Source: an uncultured Anaerolineae bacterium (GTDB lineage Bacteria > Chloroflexota > Anaerolineae > CG2-30-64-16). Taken from it: DNA of 64,000 nt. Position 1 is the first letter of the stretch. Every line of letters begins with the position of its first letter. The stretch covers positions 68,606-132,605 of the forward strand of contig CAKZKT010000127.1 of the NCBI GenBank assembly GCA_937124585.1, written 5' to 3'. Below the pieces are notes generated by a model. That model worked only from the letters and a program-made list of their open reading frames with translations. It was not told where the DNA came from and did no database searches. The translations under genes were made by a program, and so were the position numbers. Of the stretch, positions 11,222 to 59,157 are shown piece after piece.

Positions 11222-11775
11222 GTGCTGACCGACAACGCCTTCCGGGACCTCACTGCGCACATCGCGGGCCAGAACACCGCCATGGCCGGCGCCGTCATCG
11301 CGGCTTCGGCCGCGCTGGCGTGCAGCCTGGGCGAAGCGTGCGTACGCCTCAACGCTTCTATCCTGGGCGAAGCCGCCATCGGGTCGCTCGCTGAACGGCT
11401 GGCGGCGATCCGCACACAACTGCTGACGCTCGCCGACGAAGACGGCGCCGCGATCATCGCATTCGCCGCGCTGCGCGCCGCCGGCAAGACGCTGGTCGGC
11501 CAAGAACAATTATGTCAAGCGCCGATAGAGATAGCGCGCCGCGCGCTCGAGGCGGCCGCGTCGCTCCAGGCATTCCGCCCATCCATCCAGCTGGCCCAGG
11601 ATGACCTGGAGATGGCGATCGTGTTGCTGGCAGGGGCCGTGCGCGCAGCGACCCTCCTGCTCGACTCCAACCTGCGCCTCTGGCCCGAGCCGCCCCTGCT
11701 GGCGCGCTTTGATCCGGAACTGGCCGTGCTGCGGGCTGAGGCCGGTCGCATCCATCCCGTGGAACGGATTCGCCC

Positions 11776-11779
<4 letters not shown>
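11222..11779 (+). CDS. Cyclodeaminase/cyclohydrolase family protein (formiminotransferase-cyclodeaminase C-terminal-domain-like)
   Basis: GTG start with a GAGGAA RBS. An all-alpha, Ala-rich sequence resembles the FTCD_C family (F.D.TA..AGQN.AMAGAVIAASAALACSL). The call rests on resemblance only. Confidence 0.45.
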
Positions 11780-12774
<995 letters not shown>

Positions 12775-15356: not shown

Positions 15357-15524
15357 GGGTTTGACTCCTCCGTCATGAGATGGGGTCGGCCGGCGCGAGG
15401 GCACCGTCCTGGCCCACAGTATACCATCATCCGGGCCAAACGAGGCTGCGCGCCGGCCCGATGTGCCGGGCCGCGACGCGGGCGCCCGGCACGTCGGACA
15501 CGAAACAAAAGCGAGAGGAAAAAC

Positions 15525-22375: not shown

Positions 22376-22396
22376 CCGAACATCGCCGCCAGACGC

Positions 22397-22422
22397 GCCG
22401 GGCATCTCGCAGAGTGCCCGGC
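22397..22422. repeat. Degenerate copy of the palindromic repeat family (GCCGGGCA-N10-TGCCCGGC) in the E1alpha-E1beta intergenic spacer
   Basis: Its 8-bp arms and 10-nt loop (TCTCGCAGAG) closely match the GTGCCAGGCATCT(C/T)GCAGAGTGCCTGGCAC elements at 38.7 kb and 43.9 kb. Confidence 0.6.
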
Positions 22423-22480
22423 ACGGAGGTACTGGAGGTCAGGGACGGGAAGCCGGCAGCCAGAAGCTGGGAGGAAACAC

Positions 22481-29306: not shown

Positions 29307-29428
29307 CGAGTGCGATCTCCTCTCAGTAGTTCAGGCCCCATGAAAATGGGCCGTCCACGTGCCAGGCGCCTGGCACATCGGTGGCAAGTGTGATATGATA
29401 GGTTTGTAATTAAAAATTTCTGTTTTCT

Positions 29429-37644: not shown

Positions 37645-38712
37645 CTATACATCGTCCGGCCGCACCTCCCGCCCCTCCCGCGCGGAGATGTGGGCGGCCA
37701 GGCTGAACGCCAACACCTTGCGGCCGGTCAGGCCGTCCAGCACCGGCCGGCCGCCGCGCGTCAGCACCTCGATCAGGTGGCGGGTGCAATCAATGAAGCT
37801 GTCGTGCCACTCGCCCCGCTCCACCGGCACGGATTTCGTGGTCCCATCCCGGAACAGCATCAACGGCGGCAGGTCCACGGTGCGCGCGGTGCAGCGGTTG
37901 ACGAAGAGGATCCCCCGGTCGCCGATCACCTCCACGCGGTCGTCGTCCGCGTAGTAGATCGAGTCCATGACCAGGTTGGGCGTGTGCGCGAAATCGAGCA
38001 CGCCGTAGCGACGCGGGGCCTTGAACTGGAACATGATCGTCGCCGGCGCGTCCACGTAGACCCCGGGGTAGACGCGGCTGCGATCGAGCCAGGCGTAGAC
38101 CCGGGCCACGTCGCCCATCAGGTAGTGCGCCAAGGAGAAGAGGTGGTAGCCGTGGTCGAACACCAGCGGCCCGCCGCCCGATTGCTTGGGCCGAAAGCGC
38201 CATAGCCAGGCGCGCAGCGGCACCTTCCAGGCGGTCTTGCTCTTGCCCGTGCTCACGTGCAGGCGGATCATCTGTGGCTCGCCGATCTCGCCCGCGTCGA
38301 GCATCTGCTTCGCCAGCACATGGGGCGGGTAGAAGACGAAGTTTTCGTAGACGCGCAGGGTAACCCCGGCCTCTTTCGCGGCCGCGATCATGCGATCGGC
38401 CTCTGCCACGGTCAGCGCCATGGGCTTTTGCACCGAGACGTGCTTGCCCGCTCGACAGGCCGCGATGGTCATCTCGGCGTGCAGGTGATGCGGCACCAGC
38501 AGCTCGACCAGGTCAACCTCGTTGTCCTCCAGCACCTGGCGATAATCCGTGTAGACCTTCGCCACGCCCCATGCCCTGGCCCGGGCTTCGGCTAGCTTCC
38601 GCTCCCGGTCGCAGGTCGCGACGATGCGGGCGTCCTCGCGGCCGCGATAGCCCAGCTCGTGCAGGTCGGCAATCCGACCGCAGCCGACGATAGCAACGCG
38701 AATAGGGGGCAT
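37645..38712 (-). CDS. Gfo/Idh/MocA-family NAD(P)-dependent oxidoreductase
   Basis: Starts MPPIRVAIVGCGRIADLHELGY with an AGAGGA RBS 5 nt upstream. The 32 upstream codons of the ORF-track entry are translation of the palindromic repeat (MPGTLQDAWHV...). Confidence 0.8.
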   Translation of the reverse strand: MPPIRVAIVGCGRIADLHELGYRGREDARIVATCDRERKLAEARARAWGVAKVYTDYRQVLEDNEVDLVELLVPHHLHAEMTIAACRAGKHVSVQKPMALTVAEADRMIAAAKEAGVTLRVYENFVFYPPHVLAKQMLDAGEIGEPQMIRLHVSTGKSKTAWKVPLRAWLWRFRPKQSGGGPLVFDHGYHLFSLAHYLMGDVARVYAWLDRSRVYPGVYVDAPATIMFQFKAPRRYGVLDFAHTPNLVMDSIYYADDDRVEVIGDRGILFVNRCTARTVDLPPLMLFRDGTTKSVPVERGEWHDSFIDCTRHLIEVLTRGGRPVLDGLTGRKVLAFSLAAHISAREGREVRPDDV

Positions 38713-38729: not shown

Positions 38730-38865
38730 ACGTGCCAGGCATCTTGCAGAGTGCCTGGCACGTGTGAGCCGGTTCGACGTGCCAGGCATCTTGCAGAGTG
38801 CCTGGCACGTGTGAGCCGGTTCGACGTGCCAGGCATCTTGCAGAATGCCTGGCACGTGAGCACTC
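38730..38865. repeat. Tandem array (about 2.9 x 47 bp) of palindromic repeat ACGTGCCAGGCA-TCTTGCAGAG-TGCCTGGCACGT plus 13-nt spacer GTGAGCCGGTTCG
   Basis: Read directly. Units start at 38731, 38778 and 38825. The arms are perfect 12-bp inverted repeats. The array lies between the GPH transporter stop and the Gfo/Idh/MocA start. Confidence 0.85.
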
Positions 38866-38866
38866 G

Positions 38867-40216
38867 CTACCGCATCCCGATCTTCTCCATCACCGCCCGA
38901 TGGCTGGCGCGGGTGATCGGATACCGGATCAACAAGGGCAAGCAGGCCAGGATGAGCAGCGCAGGCGCCGGCCCGAAGAAGAGCCGGATGCCCAGCAAGG
39001 TCGGGGTGGTCTGGGCCACGTTGGGCACGTACCTGAACGCGGCCAGGATCCAGCCGCTGGCTGCGATGGCCAACGCCTCCGCGATCTTGGTGGCCAGCCC
39101 CCACACCCCGAAGTACATCCCGCTGCGATACTCGCCGGTGCTCAGCCGGTCGTAGTCCACGACATCGGGCACCATGGCCCACGGGAAGACCCACTGCGCG
39201 GAGAAGCCGATCCCCGCCAGGGCCGCGATGACGTAGACCCACGGCGTCGGCCCGGCCGGCAAGAGAAAAGTAGCCGCCACCGCCAGCCCGCCGATGGCCA
39301 TGCCCAGCGCGTAGGCCGGGCCCTTGTCCCAGCGCTGCGCCAGCCAGCGCCACGGGAAGAGCGCCAGCACGACGAAGACCAGCATCAGGCCCATCACCAC
39401 GGGCACCTGCGCCTCCATGCCGAGCTGGTAGGTGAGGAAATAGGCCATGAGGGTTTTGATGAGGGCGAAGGCGGCGGTGAGGACGAAATAGGCGGCGATC
39501 AGCCGGACGAAGGGCCGGTTGGTGAAGGTGGCCCGGATCGCCTGCCAAGGCGGCAGCTCGGCCTTGCTGGCGGCCACCGCCGGCCGCTCGCGCAGTCCTG
39601 CGGCCGAGATCAGCAGCGCGGCCACGGCCAGCGCGCCGTAGATCACTCCCACCGCGGCGTAGCCTGCTGCTTTGGTCGCGAACATGGCGACCAACGCCGG
39701 GGTCAGCGCCGCGCCCAGCAAGTACGCCGGCACTGCCAGCGTCATGCGGGCCGCGGTCAGGCCGGCGCGCTCGTCGTAGTCGTCGGTCAGCTCGCCGGTC
39801 AGCGCGTAGTAGGGCACGTTGGTGAAGGTCCACAGGGTGTCGAACAGGATGAAAGTCAACGCCACCCAGGCGAAGACCGCAGCCGCCGACAGCCCGGCCG
39901 GGACGCGCCACAGCAGCGCGATGGCAATCCCCAGCGGCAGCGCGCCGGCGATCATGAAGGTACGGCGCTTGCCCAGGCGGGTGGCCGGCGCGCGGTCGGC
40001 CAGCCAGCCGGCCACCGGGTCGTTGACCGCATCCCACAGCTTGCCGATCAGGAGCGCGCTGCCCACCAGGGCCGGGGCCAGCAACGCCGCGTCGGTGTAG
40101 AAGATCATCAGGAAGAACTGCACCGCCGAGTTCACGGTCGCGTTGCCCACGTCGCCGATGCCGTAGAAGAGGCGGGTCTTGAGGGACAGTCTGGTCATCT
40201 GTGGGTGGGTTGACAT
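38867..40216 (-). CDS. MFS transporter, glycoside-pentoside-hexuronide (GPH):cation symporter family
   Basis: 449 aa with 12 predicted TM segments. The N-terminus (KTRLFYGIGDVGNA...) is typical of MelB/GPH. Confidence 0.75.
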   Translation of the reverse strand: MSTHPQMTRLSLKTRLFYGIGDVGNATVNSAVQFFLMIFYTDAALLAPALVGSALLIGKLWDAVNDPVAGWLADRAPATRLGKRRTFMIAGALPLGIAIALLWRVPAGLSAAAVFAWVALTFILFDTLWTFTNVPYYALTGELTDDYDERAGLTAARMTLAVPAYLLGAALTPALVAMFATKAAGYAAVGVIYGALAVAALLISAAGLRERPAVAASKAELPPWQAIRATFTNRPFVRLIAAYFVLTAAFALIKTLMAYFLTYQLGMEAQVPVVMGLMLVFVVLALFPWRWLAQRWDKGPAYALGMAIGGLAVAATFLLPAGPTPWVYVIAALAGIGFSAQWVFPWAMVPDVVDYDRLSTGEYRSGMYFGVWGLATKIAEALAIAASGWILAAFRYVPNVAQTTPTLLGIRLFFGPAPALLILACLPLLIRYPITRASHRAVMEKIGMR

Positions 40217-41895
40217 GGCAGAATTATACTTCCTTCGTTGGCCTGAGTCACAATCCGCCGATAGATATCCAGAAAGCCCCCGGCAACCCGCGGCGGCCGT
40301 GGCTGCCAGGCGGCCAGGCGCCGGCCGAGCTCCTCGTCGGAGATCAGCAGCTGCAGGCGCCGGGCCGGGATGTCAATCTCGATCAGATCGCCGTCGCGCA
40401 CTGCGGCGATGGGGCCGCCGACAAACGCTTCCGGCGCCACATGGCCGACGCAAGGCCCCCGCGTCGCGCCGGAGAAACGGCCATCGGTGATCATGGCCAC
40501 CGATTCGGCCAGCCCCATGCCGACCAGCATTGCCGCCGGGATCGAAAGCTCGCGCATCCCCGGGCCGCCGGCCGGGCCCTCATTGCGGATCACCAGCACG
40601 TCGCCCGGCCGGATCGCGGCGGCGTGCAGGGAGTCGCGCACGGCTTCCTCGCACTCGAAGACGCGCGCCGGGCCGACATGGCGCAGCATGGCCGGCGCCA
40701 CGCCGCTCTGCTTGACCACCGCGCCGGCCGGGGCCAAATTGCCCCGCAGGACGACGATCCCGCCCTCGGCCGCCAGGGGATCGTGCAGGGGGCGCAACAC
40801 TTCGGGGCGCTGCACACGGCCGGCAGCCGCCCGGGCCGCGATCGTCTCGCCCGTGACCGTCGGCGCGTCGGCATGAAGCAGGGGCAGCAGCACGTTCAGC
40901 ACGGCCGGGATGCCGCCGGCAGCGTGCAGGTCCACCACGGTGAAGGCCGCGGCGGGGCGAAACTTGCCGATCAGCGGCGTGGTGCGGCCCAGCGCGTCGA
41001 AATCATCCAGCGACACGGCCACGTCGGCCGCCCGGGCAATGGCCGGGATGTGCAGCGCGGCGTTGGTGGAGCCTCCGATTGCCTGCACGACGCGGATGGC
41101 GTTCTCGAAGCTGGGCCGGGACAGGAAGGCGCGCGCCGTCAACGGGCCAGGCACGCCGCCAGTGGCTGATGCATGGCGAGCGACCATTTCGACGATGCGC
41201 CGGCCGCTGGCTTCGCACAGCGCCCGACGCTCCGGCGCCTCCGCGGGCAGGGTGGCACAGCCGGGCAGCGTCAGCCCCAGCGCCTCGGTCACACAGGCCA
41301 TGGTATTGGCGGTGCCCATGAAGCTGCATGCGCCGGGGCCGGGACACGCAGCCGCCTCGAGCTCGCGCAACTCCGCCTCGGTCATGCGGCCCGCCTCCAC
41401 GCGGCCCATCCCCTCCTTCACGTCGCTGAGGATCACCTCCCGGTCGCCGAGGCGACCCGGCCGCATCGGCCCGCCGGTGACGAAGAGGGTCGGCAGGTCA
41501 AGCCACGCGGCCGCGATCAACATGCCCGGGATGATCTTGTCGCAGCTGGCCAGCATCACCAGGCCGTCAAAGCGATGGCCGCGCGCCATCAGCTCCACCG
41601 AGGCCGCGATGACATCGCGCAGGGGCAGGATCGCGTGCATGCCCGGCCCCTGGGCGATCCCGTCGCACGGCGCGACCGTGTTGAACTCGGCCGGCATGCC
41701 GCCTGCGGCCCGCACGCCGGCCTTGGCCCACCCCGCCAGCTCCCGCAGGTGCAGGTGGCCGGGACAGGTCTCGCTCCACGAGTTGGCGATGCCGATCAGC
41801 GGCTTGCCGAAGTCATCGTCGCCGAAGCCCATGGGCCGAAAAAGGGCGCGCGGGTAGGCACCGTGAAGGCCCTCGAAGAGAGTATTGGTTACCAT
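40195..41895 (-). CDS. IlvD/EDD-family dehydratase (dihydroxy-acid or sugar-acid dehydratase)
   Basis: [2Fe-2S]/Mg motifs (CDGIAQG, ASCDKIIPG, CPGPGACSFMGTANTMA). Start is probably MVTNTLFEG at 41895, 2 nt after the upstream stop; the alternative start at 41940 overlaps. Confidence 0.8.
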   Translation of the reverse strand: MVTNTLFEGLHGAYPRALFRPMGFGDDDFGKPLIGIANSWSETCPGHLHLRELAGWAKAGVRAAGGMPAEFNTVAPCDGIAQGPGMHAILPLRDVIAASVELMARGHRFDGLVMLASCDKIIPGMLIAAAWLDLPTLFVTGGPMRPGRLGDREVILSDVKEGMGRVEAGRMTEAELRELEAAACPGPGACSFMGTANTMACVTEALGLTLPGCATLPAEAPERRALCEASGRRIVEMVARHASATGGVPGPLTARAFLSRPSFENAIRVVQAIGGSTNAALHIPAIARAADVAVSLDDFDALGRTTPLIGKFRPAAAFTVVDLHAAGGIPAVLNVLLPLLHADAPTVTGETIAARAAAGRVQRPEVLRPLHDPLAAEGGIVVLRGNLAPAGAVVKQSGVAPAMLRHVGPARVFECEEAVRDSLHAAAIRPGDVLVIRNEGPAGGPGMRELSIPAAMLVGMGLAESVAMITDGRFSGATRGPCVGHVAPEAFVGGPIAAVRDGDLIEIDIPARRLQLLISDEELGRRLAAWQPRPPRVAGGFLDIYRRIVTQANEGSIILPCQPTHR

Positions 41896-41897
41896 GG

Positions 41898-43811
41898 CTA
41901 CAATCCGATCCGGTGTCGCAGTGCCTGTACGTCTTCGCACCAGTTGCCCACGTTCCAGCGGCCGAAGACGCCCATCCCGCCCAGCGGATCGGGGCCGAAG
42001 TAGACCGGGACGTGGATCAGGCTCAAGCCGGGGTAGGCATAGGCCCGGTCGAGCGCTGCCAGGAGCGACGGGATGGCATCGCCTCCCGGCAGGGCCTGCA
42101 CCCCGGCCACCGCCTGGGCCCAGGCCACGTAGTCCACCGCGACGCGATCCGCGGTGGCGAACTCGTGGCCGTACTGCGCCTCTTGCAGGCCGGTAATCGC
42201 GGCCATCCGCCGGTTGTCCAGCAGCAGAATGCAGCCGCGAGCACCATGCTGCACCCCGTCAATCAAGATCTGCGGGTTCATGGTAAACGAGCCGTCCCCG
42301 CTGATCGCCAGTCCGTAGAACGGCGGCTCGGCCGCGGCCGTCGCCAGCAGCGCGGAGACCGCGAAGCCCATGTAGCTGGCCCCCGTCTCGGTGATCGTAC
42401 GGCCGGGGCGGTCGTCCTCGACGACCTGAAAGCCGTTGGCCTGCACATCGCCCGCATCGAAGAAGGTCACGACATCGTGGGCGCGTGCCCAATCGGTCGC
42501 CGCCTTGATCGCTGCGGGCTGCGTGAGCACATCCCGGCCCCAACCGGCGTCCCACAGGGTCGGACGGTCGTAGTGCTCGGCCTTAAACGCCTCCCAGGCG
42601 CGCTTCTGAGCCGCGCACTCGGCCAGCCAGGGAGATGGCCCGCCAGCGGCCTTGGGGACGCGCAGCCGCAGCCCGTCGTTCAACCGCCGCAGCGTGGCCT
42701 TTGCATCCCCGATCAGCGCCAGCGTCTTGCCGTAGTGCAGCGCCGCGTCGGGATCGGGATTGATGTTGATCACGTGCTTGACCCGCGGATAGCCCGTGCG
42801 CGAGCTGTCGGATTGACAGACCGCGCGCGTCCCGATGGCCACCAGCAGGTCGGCGTGCTCCATGGCATAGTTGCCGCAGAGCGAGCCTTTCGATCCGCCG
42901 ACCGTCATGTTGCGGGGGTGGGTGTAGGGCACGACGCCGGTAGCAATGGGGGTGTGCACCAGCACGGCATCGGTCAGCTCCAGGAACTCCGCCAGCTCAG
43001 GGCCGGCATCCCTCGCGCCGCCGCCGATCTTGACGACAACCCGCTCGGCTGCCAGCAGCAGTTCGGCAGCACGGGCATAGGCGTCGTCGTCCGCGACCGC
43101 GCCAACGTGCGGTACCGGCCCCTCGGGCAGCTCGTTCAGGTTGAAGCCGGGCATGGCTGCGGCCTGGGTGTTCATGGGCAGGAGGAGAAAGAAAGGCCCG
43201 GCGCGATACGGATGATCCACCGTGACCAACCCGCGACGGAGCGCAGTGGCAAGAGCCATTGGCGTATGCAGGCTGTAGCCCCGACCGGCCGTCTCACACA
43301 GCCGGAGGAACAGTGCCTGCTCATGCTTGGGGATCTGCTGCATGTTCGGCCCCTCGTCCTCGGTGGTCTCATCCCCGAACAGGTACCAGACACCGATCCC
43401 GTCAGAGGCGGGCGCCAGCGACGCAGCCAGCGCCTGCAGCGCGCCCGGGCCGATGGATGTGACCACGGCACTCTGCTGGCCCGTCACCCAGCGCAGGGCG
43501 GTCGCAGCGTGAGACGCTTCGATCTCGTTGCGGACGTTCAGCACGCGCAGCAGCCCTGCCTCGGCGTAGATGCGCAGCACCTCGCCGATCTCGGTGGAGC
43601 CGTGGCCGAAAACGGCAAAAAAGATGCGCACGCCCTGGCGCAGCAGACCTAACACCAACGCCTCGGACAGAGTCGTGTCAATGCTGGGAGGCAGCGCGCC
43701 AGCCGCCAACGCGACGTCCAGCCCACCCGCGGCCGCGATGGCTCTGGCGCGGGCCGCGCGCGCTGCTGCGAGGAGATCCTGGCTGGCAACGAAGCGATTC
43801 ACGGATACCAC
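41898..43811 (-). CDS. Thiamine-pyrophosphate enzyme, IolD-like (3D-(3,5/4)-trihydroxycyclohexane-1,2-dione acylhydrolase family; acetolactate-synthase superfamily)
   Basis: 637 aa. TPP-binding GDGSF...N region (ISGDGSFTMNPQILIDGVQHGARGCILLLDNRRMAAITGLQ) and an N-terminal FGHG...SIGPGA region laid out like IolD. Confidence 0.65.
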   Translation of the reverse strand: MVSVNRFVASQDLLAAARAARARAIAAAGGLDVALAAGALPPSIDTTLSEALVLGLLRQGVRIFFAVFGHGSTEIGEVLRIYAEAGLLRVLNVRNEIEASHAATALRWVTGQQSAVVTSIGPGALQALAASLAPASDGIGVWYLFGDETTEDEGPNMQQIPKHEQALFLRLCETAGRGYSLHTPMALATALRRGLVTVDHPYRAGPFFLLLPMNTQAAAMPGFNLNELPEGPVPHVGAVADDDAYARAAELLLAAERVVVKIGGGARDAGPELAEFLELTDAVLVHTPIATGVVPYTHPRNMTVGGSKGSLCGNYAMEHADLLVAIGTRAVCQSDSSRTGYPRVKHVININPDPDAALHYGKTLALIGDAKATLRRLNDGLRLRVPKAAGGPSPWLAECAAQKRAWEAFKAEHYDRPTLWDAGWGRDVLTQPAAIKAATDWARAHDVVTFFDAGDVQANGFQVVEDDRPGRTITETGASYMGFAVSALLATAAAEPPFYGLAISGDGSFTMNPQILIDGVQHGARGCILLLDNRRMAAITGLQEAQYGHEFATADRVAVDYVAWAQAVAGVQALPGGDAIPSLLAALDRAYAYPGLSLIHVPVYFGPDPLGGMGVFGRWNVGNWCEDVQALRHRIGL

Positions 43812-43834
43812 CTTTCACCTTTCACGTTGCAAAG

Positions 43835-43898
43835 TGTCTGGCACGTGCGAAATGAGCCGGATTCACGTGCCAGGCATCTCGCAGAGTGCCTGGCACGT
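43835..43898. repeat. About 1.5 copies of the palindromic repeat (ACGTGCCAGGCA-TCTCGCAGAG-TGCCTGGCACGT) in the divergent IolD-like/tetR intergenic region
   Basis: Full copy at 43865-43898 with perfect 12-bp arms. A half-site (TGTCTGGCACGTG) lies upstream with spacer CGAAATGAGCCGGATTCA. Confidence 0.8.
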
Positions 43899-44030
43899 GT
43901 GGCAGATTTCGCGATTCATCGAGAAGATACAACCAGTTTGATGCCTTGTCAAATGCGATTTGACAAACGCGCCGATCGGTGAGACAATCAGAAAAACCGA
44001 CCGGTCGGTATAATTCCACATGGAGGCACC

Positions 44031-44684
44031 ATGAGCCATCAGGCGCGGGGAGACGAGACTCAAGCACGCATCCTGGCCGCAGCGGCCGAATGTTTCACCC
44101 GCGCCGGCTACGACGCCACCGGTGTGGCTGAGATCTGTGCCCGGGCTGGGGTAAGCAAAGGCGCGTTCTATCACCACTTCCCGACCAAGCAGGCCCTGTT
44201 CCTGGCCCTGCTCGACCGGTGGCTGGCCGGATTGGACAGTTCGTTGCAGGCCACGCGGCGGGCCGGGATGACCATGCCGCAACGCCTGGAGGAGCTGGCA
44301 GAAACGGTGGAACAGGTGCTGGAAGCGGCCAGGGGCCAGGTGCCCATGTTCCTGGAGTTCTGGCGTCAAGCCGCCAAAGAGCCCCAGGTGTGGCAGGCCT
44401 CCATCGAGCCCTACCAGCGTTTTCGCTCCGCATTCGTGGCGATGGTGCAAGAGGGCATCGCCGAAGGCTCGCTGCGCGCGGTGGATGCGAGGCTGGCAGC
44501 CCTGGTGCTGGTCTCGCTGGGAGTGGGATTGGTGCTGCAAGGCGTGCTCGATCCGGCCGCAGCAGCATGGCCCGGCGCGGCCGGCCAGGCCGTTCGTTTG
44601 CTCCTGGATGGCCTGGCAGCCCCGGATCGTTTATCCCCGTGCCAGGCACCCTCTCAGGGGCCTGGCACGTACACACACGATTGA
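44031..44684 (+). CDS. TetR/AcrR-family transcriptional regulator
   Basis: GGAGG RBS. N-terminal HTH (ILAAAAECFTRAGYDATGVAEICARAGVSKGAFYHHFPTKQALF). The last ~15 codons read into the repeat. Confidence 0.85.
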   Translation: MSHQARGDETQARILAAAAECFTRAGYDATGVAEICARAGVSKGAFYHHFPTKQALFLALLDRWLAGLDSSLQATRRAGMTMPQRLEELAETVEQVLEAARGQVPMFLEFWRQAAKEPQVWQASIEPYQRFRSAFVAMVQEGIAEGSLRAVDARLAALVLVSLGVGLVLQGVLDPAAAAWPGAAGQAVRLLLDGLAAPDRLSPCQAPSQGPGTYTHD

Positions 44685-44740
44685 TCCACGTGCCAGGCAC
44701 CCTCTCAGGTGCCTGGCACGTAAATGATGCCTGGCACGTT
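44638..44740. repeat. About 2.5 tandem copies of a variant palindromic repeat (CGTGCCAGGC-ACCCTCTCAGGN-GCCTGGCACGT), period about 51 bp, at the tetR 3' end / upstream of 44800 gene
   Basis: Copies at 44638-44671 and 44689-44721, plus a partial copy (ATGCCTGGCACGTT) at 44722-44740. Arms are the same as at the other loci but the loop sequence differs. Confidence 0.8.
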
Positions 44741-44799: not shown

Positions 44800-46590
44800 A
44801 TGAAAGTATTGCTCACGGGCGCGTTCGGGAATGTCGGCATCAGCACCCTCGACGAATTGCTGCGGCAGGGCCATACTGTACGCTGCTTTGATCTGCGCAC
44901 CGCGGTCAACGAGCGGACAGCCCGCCGCTATGCGGGCCGCATCGAGGTCGTATGGGGCGACCTGCGGAATCCGGCCGATGTGGCCGCGGCCGTAGCAGGG
45001 GTCGAGGTCGTCCTCCACGTCGCGTTCATCATCCCCAAGATGTCGCATACCGGCATCGAATCGGAGCTGCGGCCCGACTGGGCCGCGGCGGTCAATGTCG
45101 GCGGCACGCGCCACCTGATCCAGGCCATGCAGGCGCAGCCGATCCCGCCGAAGCTGATCTTCACCTCCTCCCTGCATGTCTACGGTCGCACCCAGCATCT
45201 GCCACCTCCGCGCACCGCCGACGAACCGGTGCATCCCATCGAACATTATGCGCGGCACAAACTACAATGCGAGGAGATGATCCGCACGTCGGGCCTGACA
45301 TGGGCCATCTTGCGGCTAGCGGCCACGCTTCCCATCGCGCTCAAGCTTGACCCCGGCATGTTCGATGTGCCACTAAACAACCGCATGGAATATGTCCACA
45401 CGAAAGACGTGGGCCTGGCGCTGGCCAACGCGGTCAGCAGTGATGCGATATGGGGCAAGACGCTGCTGATCGGCGGCGGCCCGCGCTGTCAGTACACCTA
45501 CGGCGAAATCATGGCGCGCATCATGGCTGCGCTGGGGCTGGACATGCTGCCGGCCGAAGCCTTCGCCACGACGCCCTTCGCCACCGACTGGCTGGACACG
45601 GCGGAGAGCCAGCGCCTGCTCCGCTACCAGACGCGCACCCTCGACGACTATCTGGCCGACATGACGCGGCTGATGGGCCTGCGCCTGCCGTTCATGCGGC
45701 TGTTCAAGCCGCTGATCCGGCGGTCGCTGCTGGCGCATTCACCGCATTGGACACGACACACCGCCCGACAACGCAAAGAGGGGTGGGAAAACCAGACCGC
45801 CCTGGTGACCGGCGCATCCAGCGGGATCGGCGCGGCCGCAGCCCGACAGCTGGCGCGGCTGGGCGTCCGCGTGCTCCTGGTGGCCCGTCGCGGCGAGCGG
45901 CTGGAACTGCTGGCAGACGAGATCCGGCGAGACGGCGGCAGCGCGCACGCCATCACTGCCGACCTGGCCAACGAGGCCGAACGCGCCCGGGTCCTGGAGC
46001 AGGCCCATGCGCTGGCCGGCGGCGTGGACATCCTGGTGAACAGCGCCGGATTCGGCTGGTATGGCTACGGCAGCGAGATGCCGTGGGAAGTCGCGCGTGC
46101 CATGATCCAGACGAACATGACCGCGCTGGCCCACATGACGCTGCTGGTGCTGCGCGATATGAAGGCCCGCGGCCGGGGGCACATCGTCAACATCAGCTCC
46201 ATCGCCGGCAGCCTGCCCGAACAGGGGACCGCGTTGTACAGCGCCACCAAGGCATTCGTGGACAACTTCACCACCGCCCTGCATCGTGAACTGCGCGGGA
46301 CGGCGATTCACGTCAGCCTGATCCGGCCCGGGCCGGTGCAGACGGAGTTCTTCAGCCGGGCGGCCGACCAGCCGGGCGGTTTCCGCGTGCCCGGAGAGCG
46401 GTTCGCGATCACGCCGGAGCGGGTCGCGGCGCGCGTGGTCGCCGTCCTGCGTCGGCCACGACGCGTGGTGCACATCCCGGGCTGGTGGCGCATCGCGCCG
46501 TGGATCGAGCCCGCGCTGGGCTGGCTGATCGATCGCCTGGGACCGGCGTTGCTGCGTCGCCAGAGGCGGGGCGAAACACTCGCCTCGTAG
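44800..46590 (+). CDS. Fusion protein: NAD-dependent epimerase/dehydratase (extended SDR) domain + classical SDR domain
   Basis: Start MKVLLTGAFGNVGISTL with a GAGAGG RBS (Rossmann GxxGxxG). A second Rossmann at about residue 330 (ALVTGASSGIGAAAA) carries NSAG and YSATK motifs. The AT-rich promoter-like region lies just after the repeats. Confidence 0.75.
   Translation: MKVLLTGAFGNVGISTLDELLRQGHTVRCFDLRTAVNERTARRYAGRIEVVWGDLRNPADVAAAVAGVEVVLHVAFIIPKMSHTGIESELRPDWAAAVNVGGTRHLIQAMQAQPIPPKLIFTSSLHVYGRTQHLPPPRTADEPVHPIEHYARHKLQCEEMIRTSGLTWAILRLAATLPIALKLDPGMFDVPLNNRMEYVHTKDVGLALANAVSSDAIWGKTLLIGGGPRCQYTYGEIMARIMAALGLDMLPAEAFATTPFATDWLDTAESQRLLRYQTRTLDDYLADMTRLMGLRLPFMRLFKPLIRRSLLAHSPHWTRHTARQRKEGWENQTALVTGASSGIGAAAARQLARLGVRVLLVARRGERLELLADEIRRDGGSAHAITADLANEAERARVLEQAHALAGGVDILVNSAGFGWYGYGSEMPWEVARAMIQTNMTALAHMTLLVLRDMKARGRGHIVNISSIAGSLPEQGTALYSATKAFVDNFTTALHRELRGTAIHVSLIRPGPVQTEFFSRAADQPGGFRVPGERFAITPERVAARVVAVLRRPRRVVHIPGWWRIAPWIEPALGWLIDRLGPALLRRQRRGETLAS

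Positions 46591-59081: not shown

Positions 59082-59157
<76 letters not shown>

Follow-up and report, generated by a model that had tools for sequence, protein, structure and literature searches.

Palindromes that crowd around a regulatory gene may be the operators of that regulator, or they may be copies of a repeat that happens to lie there. A stretch of 64,000 nucleotides from an uncultured Anaerolineae bacterium (Chloroflexota; contig CAKZKT010000127.1, positions 68,606 to 132,605 of the forward strand), referred to here as the window, raises this question. Copies of a near-perfect palindrome lie on both sides of a tetR gene (44031-44684) and beside a cluster of catabolic genes. A first-pass annotation had considered an array of TetR operators plausible, and had also entertained dispersed elements such as repetitive extragenic palindromic (REP) sequences or miniature inverted-repeat transposable elements (MITEs). 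We conclude, with a probability of roughly 85%, that the palindromes are a REP-type family native to the Anaerolineae and not operators for the neighbouring TetR. They constitute a new family within the known REP kind, and their unusual trait is a single arm sequence shared across a bacterial class.

The conserved unit, as read from the window, is a 34-bp near-perfect palindrome, AC-GTGCCAGGCA-N10-TGCCTGGCAC-GT. The general form of the family is AC-GTGCCWGGCA-loop(8-12)-TGCCWGGCAC-GT, in which the arm, GTGCCWGGCAC, is a palindrome in itself. Exact matches to GTGCCAGGCA-N10-TGCCTGGCAC occur five times in the window (38732, 38779, 38826, 43867 and 44690), against none expected from 100 dinucleotide-preserving shuffles. 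A covariance model was built from an alignment of 70 family members and then run on the window, where it found eight copies at six loci, all of them intergenic save for an overlap with the tail of tetR. The repeat features of the window are listed below without strand, with covariance-model scores in brackets.

38730-38857, head-to-tail array of three hairpin units (38730-38763, 38777-38810 and 38824-38857)
43828-43847, right-arm remnant, a half copy, AAGTGTCTGGCACGTG
43865-43898, single full unit with loop TCTCGCAGAG, an exact match (57 bits)
44637-44670, degenerate unit with loop CCCTCTCAGG and two arm mismatches (41.8 bits)
44688-44740, perfect unit at 44688-44721, followed by one more right arm at 44725-44740 (52.5 bits)
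22393-22426, degenerate unit (42.1 bits)
29355-29380, loop-less palindromic copy, with halves CACGTGCCAGGC and GCCTGGCAC (30.5 bits, E 9e-7)
15459-15496, degenerate copy, GTGCCGGGC...GCCCGGCAC (24.8 bits)

The four repeat loci that the first-pass annotation listed are all real, as exact matches, Tandem Repeats Finder and reading of the sequence confirm, but its tally missed two others, at 29355-29380 and 15459-15496. It had given the loop as 10-11 nt; in the window the length is always 10 nt. The 22393 copy has exchanged the core CCAGG/CCTGG for CCGGG/CCCGG with pairing kept, and the same variant is carried by the 15459 copy, which lies in a long intergenic region. Open reading frames (ORFs) that begin with 'MPGT...' are translations of the repeat, as had been claimed.

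Units fold strongly on their own and in arrays. A single unit has a predicted folding energy of -25 to -30 kcal/mol as RNA, whichever strand is taken, and of -16 to -19 kcal/mol as DNA (z -6 to -9), with 12-16 paired positions in its stem; z-scores across the repeats range from -6 to -13 on both strands. In the array at 38730 the spacer between units is an identical 13-nt sequence, GTGAGCCGGTTCG, and Tandem Repeats Finder reports a 47-bp period with 2.7 copies and 98% matches over 38730-38858. This array folds at -93 to -108 kcal/mol (z -11.7 and -13.5), or -25 to -27 kcal/mol per unit.

Conservation acts on both sequence and structure. In a comparison of 344 unique copies with no more than four arm mismatches, a sample biased to the consensus because its loci were gathered by exact arm matches, the inner ten arm positions are almost invariant, and most of their rare changes lack a compensating one. 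At the outer C-G pair, in the same sample, 52 double changes preserve pairing against 26 single changes, and a separate analysis showed the same trend. A protein that recognises hairpins in a sequence-specific way would leave just such a pattern, a fixed recognition sequence in a stem whose pairing is maintained. Further, 469 of 483 exact arms lie within hairpins and only five are isolated; the unit is therefore the hairpin and not the arm. In the 70-copy alignment the ends are a paired AC...GT, the bases beyond them are variable, and a GTAG or CGTC end tag is absent.

Dispersal, placement and array dynamics

The family extends far beyond the window. A genome scan, with one genome per species, matched at least 99 stretches. 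Among the matches listed, at least 66 stretches come from metagenome-assembled genomes (MAGs) of at least 31 Chloroflexota-labelled species, and several of these MAGs have four to eight matches each. Their labels are Chloroflexota, Anaerolineae, Anaerolineales, Thermoflexales, Thermoflexus, Caldilineales and, for one MAG, Dehalococcoidia. The usual form in these MAGs is AAC-GTGCCAGGCA-CTTCnGAAG-TGCCTGGCAC-GTT, with a stem of about 16 bp.

A metagenome scan was confined to the window's own loop subtype (subtype A, TCTYGCAGAR). It returned 110 stretches with 238 copies in 131 arrays, representing at least 104 flank-distinct loci; 26 of the stretches belong to one single assembly. These counts are lower bounds, because the window's own contig from the Joint Genome Institute (JGI), which contains exact matches, was not returned. 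Around each ascertained locus a further locus occurs every ~35 kb, which by extrapolation suggests some hundred loci per genome, or more. Between genes, the copies are dispersed at a density of about one locus in 10-35 kb. The predicted proteins of the at least 104 loci include only one other of the TetR family, encoded 10 kb from its array. The REP-like reading is supported by the number of loci for one subtype, by the span of species, by extragenic placement and by the lack of any link to TetR.

Hairpins with the same 10-nt arms were also encountered in other phyla. Those of the Planctomycetota SJ703 (L005, L041, L047 and L066; L numbers label the sequences compared) have the loop CCGCnnnGCGG, and those of the Gammaproteobacteria MFD09779 (L025 and L027) have a shorter loop, CCGnnGCGG. 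Flanks differ in both groups, and several hairpins occur per MAG. Judged from sequence, these are separate hairpin-repeat families with the same arm. The Chloroflexota-type loop CTTCnGAAG appears in MAGs labelled Roseobacter sp. GFS_4015 (L034 and L048), Promethearchaeota (L044) and Calditrichaeota (L001), and these four contigs may be mis-binned. In a scan of viral contigs, the palindrome was present on only three (L214-L216, from IMG/VR).

The position of the subtype-A arrays relative to genes was determined with a gene caller based on codon log-odds, which was trained on the gene calls of one assembly (L100) and reproduced them. Outside predicted coding sequences lie 121 of the 131 arrays (~92%), while 88% of that DNA is coding and 12% non-coding. 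The neighbouring genes could be classified for 93 arrays, of which 65 lie between codirectional, 14 between convergent and 14 between divergent genes. Stop codon and hairpin are a median 26 nt apart for codirectional and 15 nt for convergent pairs; from hairpin to start codon the median is 57 nt for codirectional and 182 nt for divergent pairs. Copies lie preferentially 15-30 nt after stop codons. The orientation of the loop shows no preference with respect to transcription (24:21). From reading the sequences, the genes that recurrently adjoin arrays encode ABC transporters, response regulators, Mrp antiporters, aminotransferases and histidine kinases.

One copy was observed within a gene. Here a hairpin with the loop CTTCCGAAG is read in frame (L155:4347-4375 and L183:5264-5292) in a predicted ORF of 796 aa, which reads like a subunit of an Mrp-type antiporter (it contains HVPGTSEVPGTSEA). 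The same loop, CTTCCGAAG, is a form common in other Chloroflexota.

Arrays of two to eight units make up 41% of all arrays, and within them the units run head to tail, their loops all oriented alike. Spacers of 7-56 nt are near-identical within an array and different between loci, and are often a copy of the 5' flank. A comparison of strains, as the first-pass annotation had suggested, showed that copy number differs: the window has three units at 38730 where assemblies L100 and L101, with an identical TetR, have four, and L102 has a run of Ns (L102:4600-4750). This is the only copy-number difference that is internal to its contig. Most other differences between orthologous loci were rejected as truncations at contig ends. 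Indeed, 28 of the 131 arrays are at contig ends (L104-L213), which, with the N run, indicates that the arrays break or collapse short-read assemblies. A pair of 384-bp segments (L128:3533-3916 and 11460-11843) was considered as the ends of a mobile element and set aside; they are 100% identical, lie 7.9 kb apart, carry one hairpin each and are probably an assembly artefact.

Loops are dynamic as well. At two pairs of orthologous loci the loop is exactly reverse-complemented, CTCTGCAAGA versus TCTTGCAGAG, between collinear flanks (L168:6345-6374 versus L184:774-803, and L172:3184 versus L191:2932); the first pair has one other difference in 270 nt. Exact reversal between collinear flanks implies that the loop flips in place between the inverted arms, and such flips are probably the reason why the two loop orientations are nearly equal in number (85 and 78). 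Plastid genomes show small inversions of hairpin loops between short inverted repeats, and quasipalindrome template switching occurs in bacteria. The plastid inversions are alike in that they too reverse-complement the loop exactly and leave arms and flanks collinear, and differ in that the flip described here takes place within a dispersed bacterial repeat family.

A REP-type family and its alternatives

We file the family among the REP elements on account of its size, stem-loop structure, dispersal, extragenic position at the 3' ends of genes and tandem clusters that carry flanking DNA. REP elements and their clusters are described from Escherichia coli, Pseudomonas and Stenotrophomonas, and the clusters show tandem reiteration together with flanking DNA, the same pattern as the spacers here (Di Nocera et al. 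2013, PMC3733652). Common to both are an imperfect palindrome of 20-40 bp, many dispersed copies, an extragenic position mostly downstream of coding sequences with occasional intragenic copies, and a copy number that varies between strains. In contrast to REP elements, the Anaerolineae repeat has symmetric ends, AC...GT, in place of an unpaired GTAG or CGTC tag, and no REP-associated tyrosine transposase (RAYT) was found near its copies. Its arrays run head to tail only, whereas the bacterial interspersed mosaic elements (BIMEs) built from REPs alternate in orientation. Its arm sequence, moreover, is common to at least 31 species of a class. Classical REP sequences are usually genus- or species-specific.

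Two related groups provide closer comparisons on single points. No dedicated transposase is known for the CGTC-tagged REPs or for the RPE-type repeats of Rickettsia (PMC3733652), and the Anaerolineae repeat resembles both in being a stem-loop family for which a search of the flanking DNA found no Y1 transposase gene. It departs from the CGTC-tagged REPs in that CGTC is not consistent, the base after the terminal GT being variable. With the RAYT-mobilised REPINs of Pseudomonas fluorescens it shares confinement to a lineage and a conservation that implies a specific protein partner. However, a REPIN is an inverted REP doublet of ~100 nt, and the repeats considered here are single 34-bp hairpins in direct tandem with no RAYT detected.

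The search for a partner protein or a described family covered several sources. Searches with phmmer, using IS200, IS608 and an E. coli RAYT as queries, found no Y1/RAYT transposase among 9171 six-frame ORFs from ~1.5 Mb of repeat-flanking DNA and the window; the RAYT query was verified against PDB 4ER8 (396 bits). A regular expression for HUH...Y..NP gave one match among the same ORFs, which is probably spurious. At gathering thresholds, Rfam reported only tRNAs in the window, and at relaxed E-values over the array it gave almost exclusively microRNA-precursor models, far below their gathering scores. A literature search for REP or RAYT together with Chloroflexi yielded no description of this family. 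The sole prokaryotic match to the arm in the literature was the primer of a group IIC intron of Bacillus halodurans, in which GTGCCAGGCA forms the intron's 5' end; we regard this as a coincidence.

How might such a family persist? We propose that a sequence-specific, hairpin-recognising enzyme would spread the copies at the DNA level. Arrays would grow and shrink by replication slippage or by unequal recombination between neighbouring hairpins, and recombination between the inverted arms, or template switching between them, would flip the loops. Once transcribed, either strand is predicted to fold into a stem of 12-16 bp at about -25 to -30 kcal/mol. By analogy with the REPs of E. coli (PMC3733652), the role of the repeat at the RNA level would most plausibly be that of a barrier to 3' exonucleases or of an intercistronic insulator. 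The clustering of copies around tetR in the window would be incidental.

Several points weigh against a REP-type family as described here. The tags of the two described REP superfamilies, GTAG and CGTC, are absent, and the flanking DNA yielded no Y1/RAYT transposase. Mobility is inferred, because no insertion with its empty site was captured in a close relative. The difference in copy number between assemblies could reflect repeat collapse in short-read assembly, and the copy number per genome is an extrapolation from a metagenome scan that gives a lower bound. The RNA-level role is an analogy, and the 14 of 93 classifiable arrays in divergent, promoter-bearing regions are ill-suited to a function purely at 3' ends. 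The genes that recur beside arrays are, in addition, housekeeping genes.

Selection without transposition might also maintain a motif of this kind. The repeats would then be binding sites for a host protein, nucleoid-associated or similar to gyrase or IHF, that acts on the duplex or on a cruciform, as in the BIMEs of E. coli. Such a protein would account for the ten inner arm positions, conserved as sequence in at least 31 species with rare changes mostly uncompensated; a dimer would suit the palindromic arm GTGCCWGGCAC, and no transposase was found in the 9171 ORFs. Against this, covariation of the outer pair and of the inner bases of the loop, or their lengthening of the stem (CTTC...GAAG), points to pairing within a strand and not to two duplex sites independent of each other. 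Isolated arms, moreover, are nearly absent, and tandem amplification together with flanking DNA, at variable copy number, looks like repeat dynamics and not like sites put in place. We regard host-protein sites as an unlikely explanation.

Very stable hairpins at a median of 15-26 nt after stop codons would also be expected of factor-independent transcription terminators selected at gene ends. However, a TTTT run lies within 12 nt on either side of only 21 of 214 unique hairpins (10%), and a terminator scan called none of the copies in the window. Many copies are between genes that appear to be co-transcribed, as between E1-alpha and E1-beta or between the transporter and the Gfo/Idh/MocA gene, and the 14 arrays in divergent regions would be misplaced. 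Terminators require structure, not a fixed 10-nt sequence. Taken as a whole, this makes terminators a very unlikely source of the family.

Two further readings are highly improbable. DNA uptake signals in inverted pairs, like the uptake sequences of Neisseria (DUS) or Haemophilus (USS), would match a class-wide conserved motif of 10-12 nt that occurs as inverted pairs downstream of genes, but uptake sequences abound as single copies, including within genes, and single arms are almost absent from this family. CRISPR-like arrays or MITEs are suggested by regular spacing, partly palindromic repeats and arms that resemble terminal inverted repeats, but the spacers are near-identical within an array and not unique, no cas-like gene was seen among those recurrent neighbour families that were identified, and the MITE label, which the first-pass annotation had also offered, does not suit a 34-bp unit with a 10-nt loop (MITEs measure 50-500 bp) for which no target-site duplication was seen when filled and empty sites were compared with distant orthologues.

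The tetR locus and its candidate operator

What remains is the idea from which the question arose, that the palindromes are an array of operators and that TetR (encoded at 44031-44684) binds them to control the catabolic genes on either side. The gene layout was taken from gene calls and Pfam matches on the identical stretch in public assemblies, with further genes of the window added; the lineage is that of the Anaerolineae MAGs GCA_034432295.1 and GCA_036742915.1 and of JGI sample 3300010288. The G+C content of the window is 66%. The features that bear on regulation are as follows (SDR, short-chain dehydrogenase/reductase; TPP, thiamine pyrophosphate; MFS, major facilitator superfamily).

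37645-38712, minus strand, Gfo/Idh/MocA gene
38867-40198, minus strand, MFS/GPH transporter gene
40195-41895, minus strand, IlvD/Edd dehydratase gene
41898-43802, minus strand, TPP-enzyme gene (IolD-like)
43924-43988, both strands, predicted divergent sigma-70-like promoters, TTGACA-17-GACAAT for tetR (plus) and TTGACA-17-TATCTT for the TPP-enzyme operon (minus)
43996-44009, no strand, perfect 14-bp palindrome ACCGACCGGTCGGT directly after the tetR -10 box, not a member of the repeat family
44031-44684, plus strand, tetR gene (217 aa, TetR_N and TetR_C_6 domains)
about 44800-46590, plus strand, epimerase-SDR fusion gene

The case for an operator array draws on the two-fold symmetry of the repeat and on the position of its copies, which flank tetR and also occur in the divergent promoter region. 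The dispersal described above stands against it: at least 104 unrelated loci include one with a TetR-family gene, and that gene is 10 kb from the array. The first-pass annotation had itself stated that hundreds of copies, spread uniformly over the genome and unassociated with this tetR, would favour a generic REP or MITE over an operator, and the operator reading does not withstand that test. In the window, too, other copies separate unrelated genes; E1-alpha and E1-beta dehydrogenase genes flank the 22393 copy, and the 29355 copy lies where an MFS gene and a histidine-kinase gene diverge.

Orthologous loci provide a second line of evidence. The tetR loci compared were L075 and L217-L220 (n=5), whose TetR proteins are 58-75% identical. 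In all five, the hairpin is absent both upstream of tetR and at its 3' end, and in L217-L220 no hairpin occurs within 3 kb on either side of tetR. The gene is followed directly by the epimerase-SDR gene in L075, L217 and L219, across a gap of 14-66 bp that contains no hairpin; the upstream genes differ. Yet the palindrome ACCGACCGGTCGGT is retained at the same position, with no more than two changes, in all six tetR promoters (the window, L075 and L217-L220). Each of the six has a ATTTGACA -35 box, then a -10 box and then the palindrome, for which the consensus across the six loci is ACCGAC(C/T)(G/A)GTCGGT.

A third argument comes from the tetR gene itself. The tetR ORF contains the 44637-44670 copy at its 3' end, and part of a non-homologous tail, LSPCQAPSQGPGTYTHD, is encoded by this copy. 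The last ~17 codons of the ORF (window 44634-44684) are derived from the repeat. Homologous TetR proteins have 197-208 aa, the alignment covers ~90% of the 217-aa protein of the window, and the C-terminal tail is unique to the window's lineage. It is plausible from the sequence that this tail of 17 aa has some effect on TetR. With a copy lodged in the gene of the supposed regulator, orthologous loci devoid of hairpins and a different palindrome kept after the -10 box, an operator array can hardly hold.

The palindrome ACCGACCGGTCGGT is a better candidate. On the evidence of its position and conservation, TetR most likely binds ACCGACCGGTCGGT at its own promoter, and most likely controls the pair formed by tetR and the epimerase-SDR gene. 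Another palindrome of this region, TTGTCAAATGCGATTTGACAA (window 43946-43966), consists of the two back-to-back TTGACA -35 boxes of the predicted divergent promoters. A reading of TGGCACG as part of a sigma-54 promoter was rejected on inspection, since its spacing to any TTGC does not fit.

A REP-type origin leaves room for local effects of individual copies. On one side of the array at 38730 is the stop codon of the transporter gene (38867) and on the other the ribosome-binding site of the Gfo/Idh/MocA gene, whose start codon is at 38712; the array fills the gap. The first-pass annotation had correctly placed it between these two genes but had spoken of a promoter; because both flanking genes are on the minus strand, the array is intercistronic and not at a demonstrated promoter. 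An effect of hairpins that abut the ribosome-binding site of the Gfo/Idh/MocA gene is nevertheless plausible. The 43865 unit occupies the divergent region between the TPP-enzyme operon and tetR, downstream of the predicted minus-strand promoter, and would therefore be part of that operon's 5' untranslated region, where a hairpin could plausibly have a local effect. The 44688-44740 group stands between the stop codon of tetR and the start codon of the epimerase-SDR gene. Elsewhere, the window carries seven clustered tRNA genes on the minus strand (1073-1788) and one more tRNA gene at 59083-59157.

Implications for Anaerolineae genomes

The conservation of the arm GTGCCWGGCAC in at least 31 Anaerolineae species invites a more specific idea, which we offer tentatively and consider doubtful: that the arm is the recognition site of a conserved protein, either an enzyme, unrelated to RAYTs, that mobilises hairpins specifically, or a host factor by which the repeat has been domesticated. 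If so, the family would represent a class-wide, long-lived partnership between repeat and protein, and not an ordinary REP family at the species level. The flipping of loops and the dynamics of arrays would then be by-products of the activity of that protein.

For annotation, the result removes a false regulatory lead and offers ACCGACCGGTCGGT in its place, with tetR and the epimerase-SDR gene as the likely regulon. The Anaerolineae are poorly cultured yet abundant, and the repeat produces spurious 'MPGT...' ORFs in their genomes. It also extends real ORFs, as in the tail of TetR, and at times lies in frame within genes. The repeat could serve as a lineage marker when MAG bins are checked. Finally, as a tag-less, class-wide, REP-like family without a visible RAYT, it provides a test case for whether such repeats always need a Y1 transposase.

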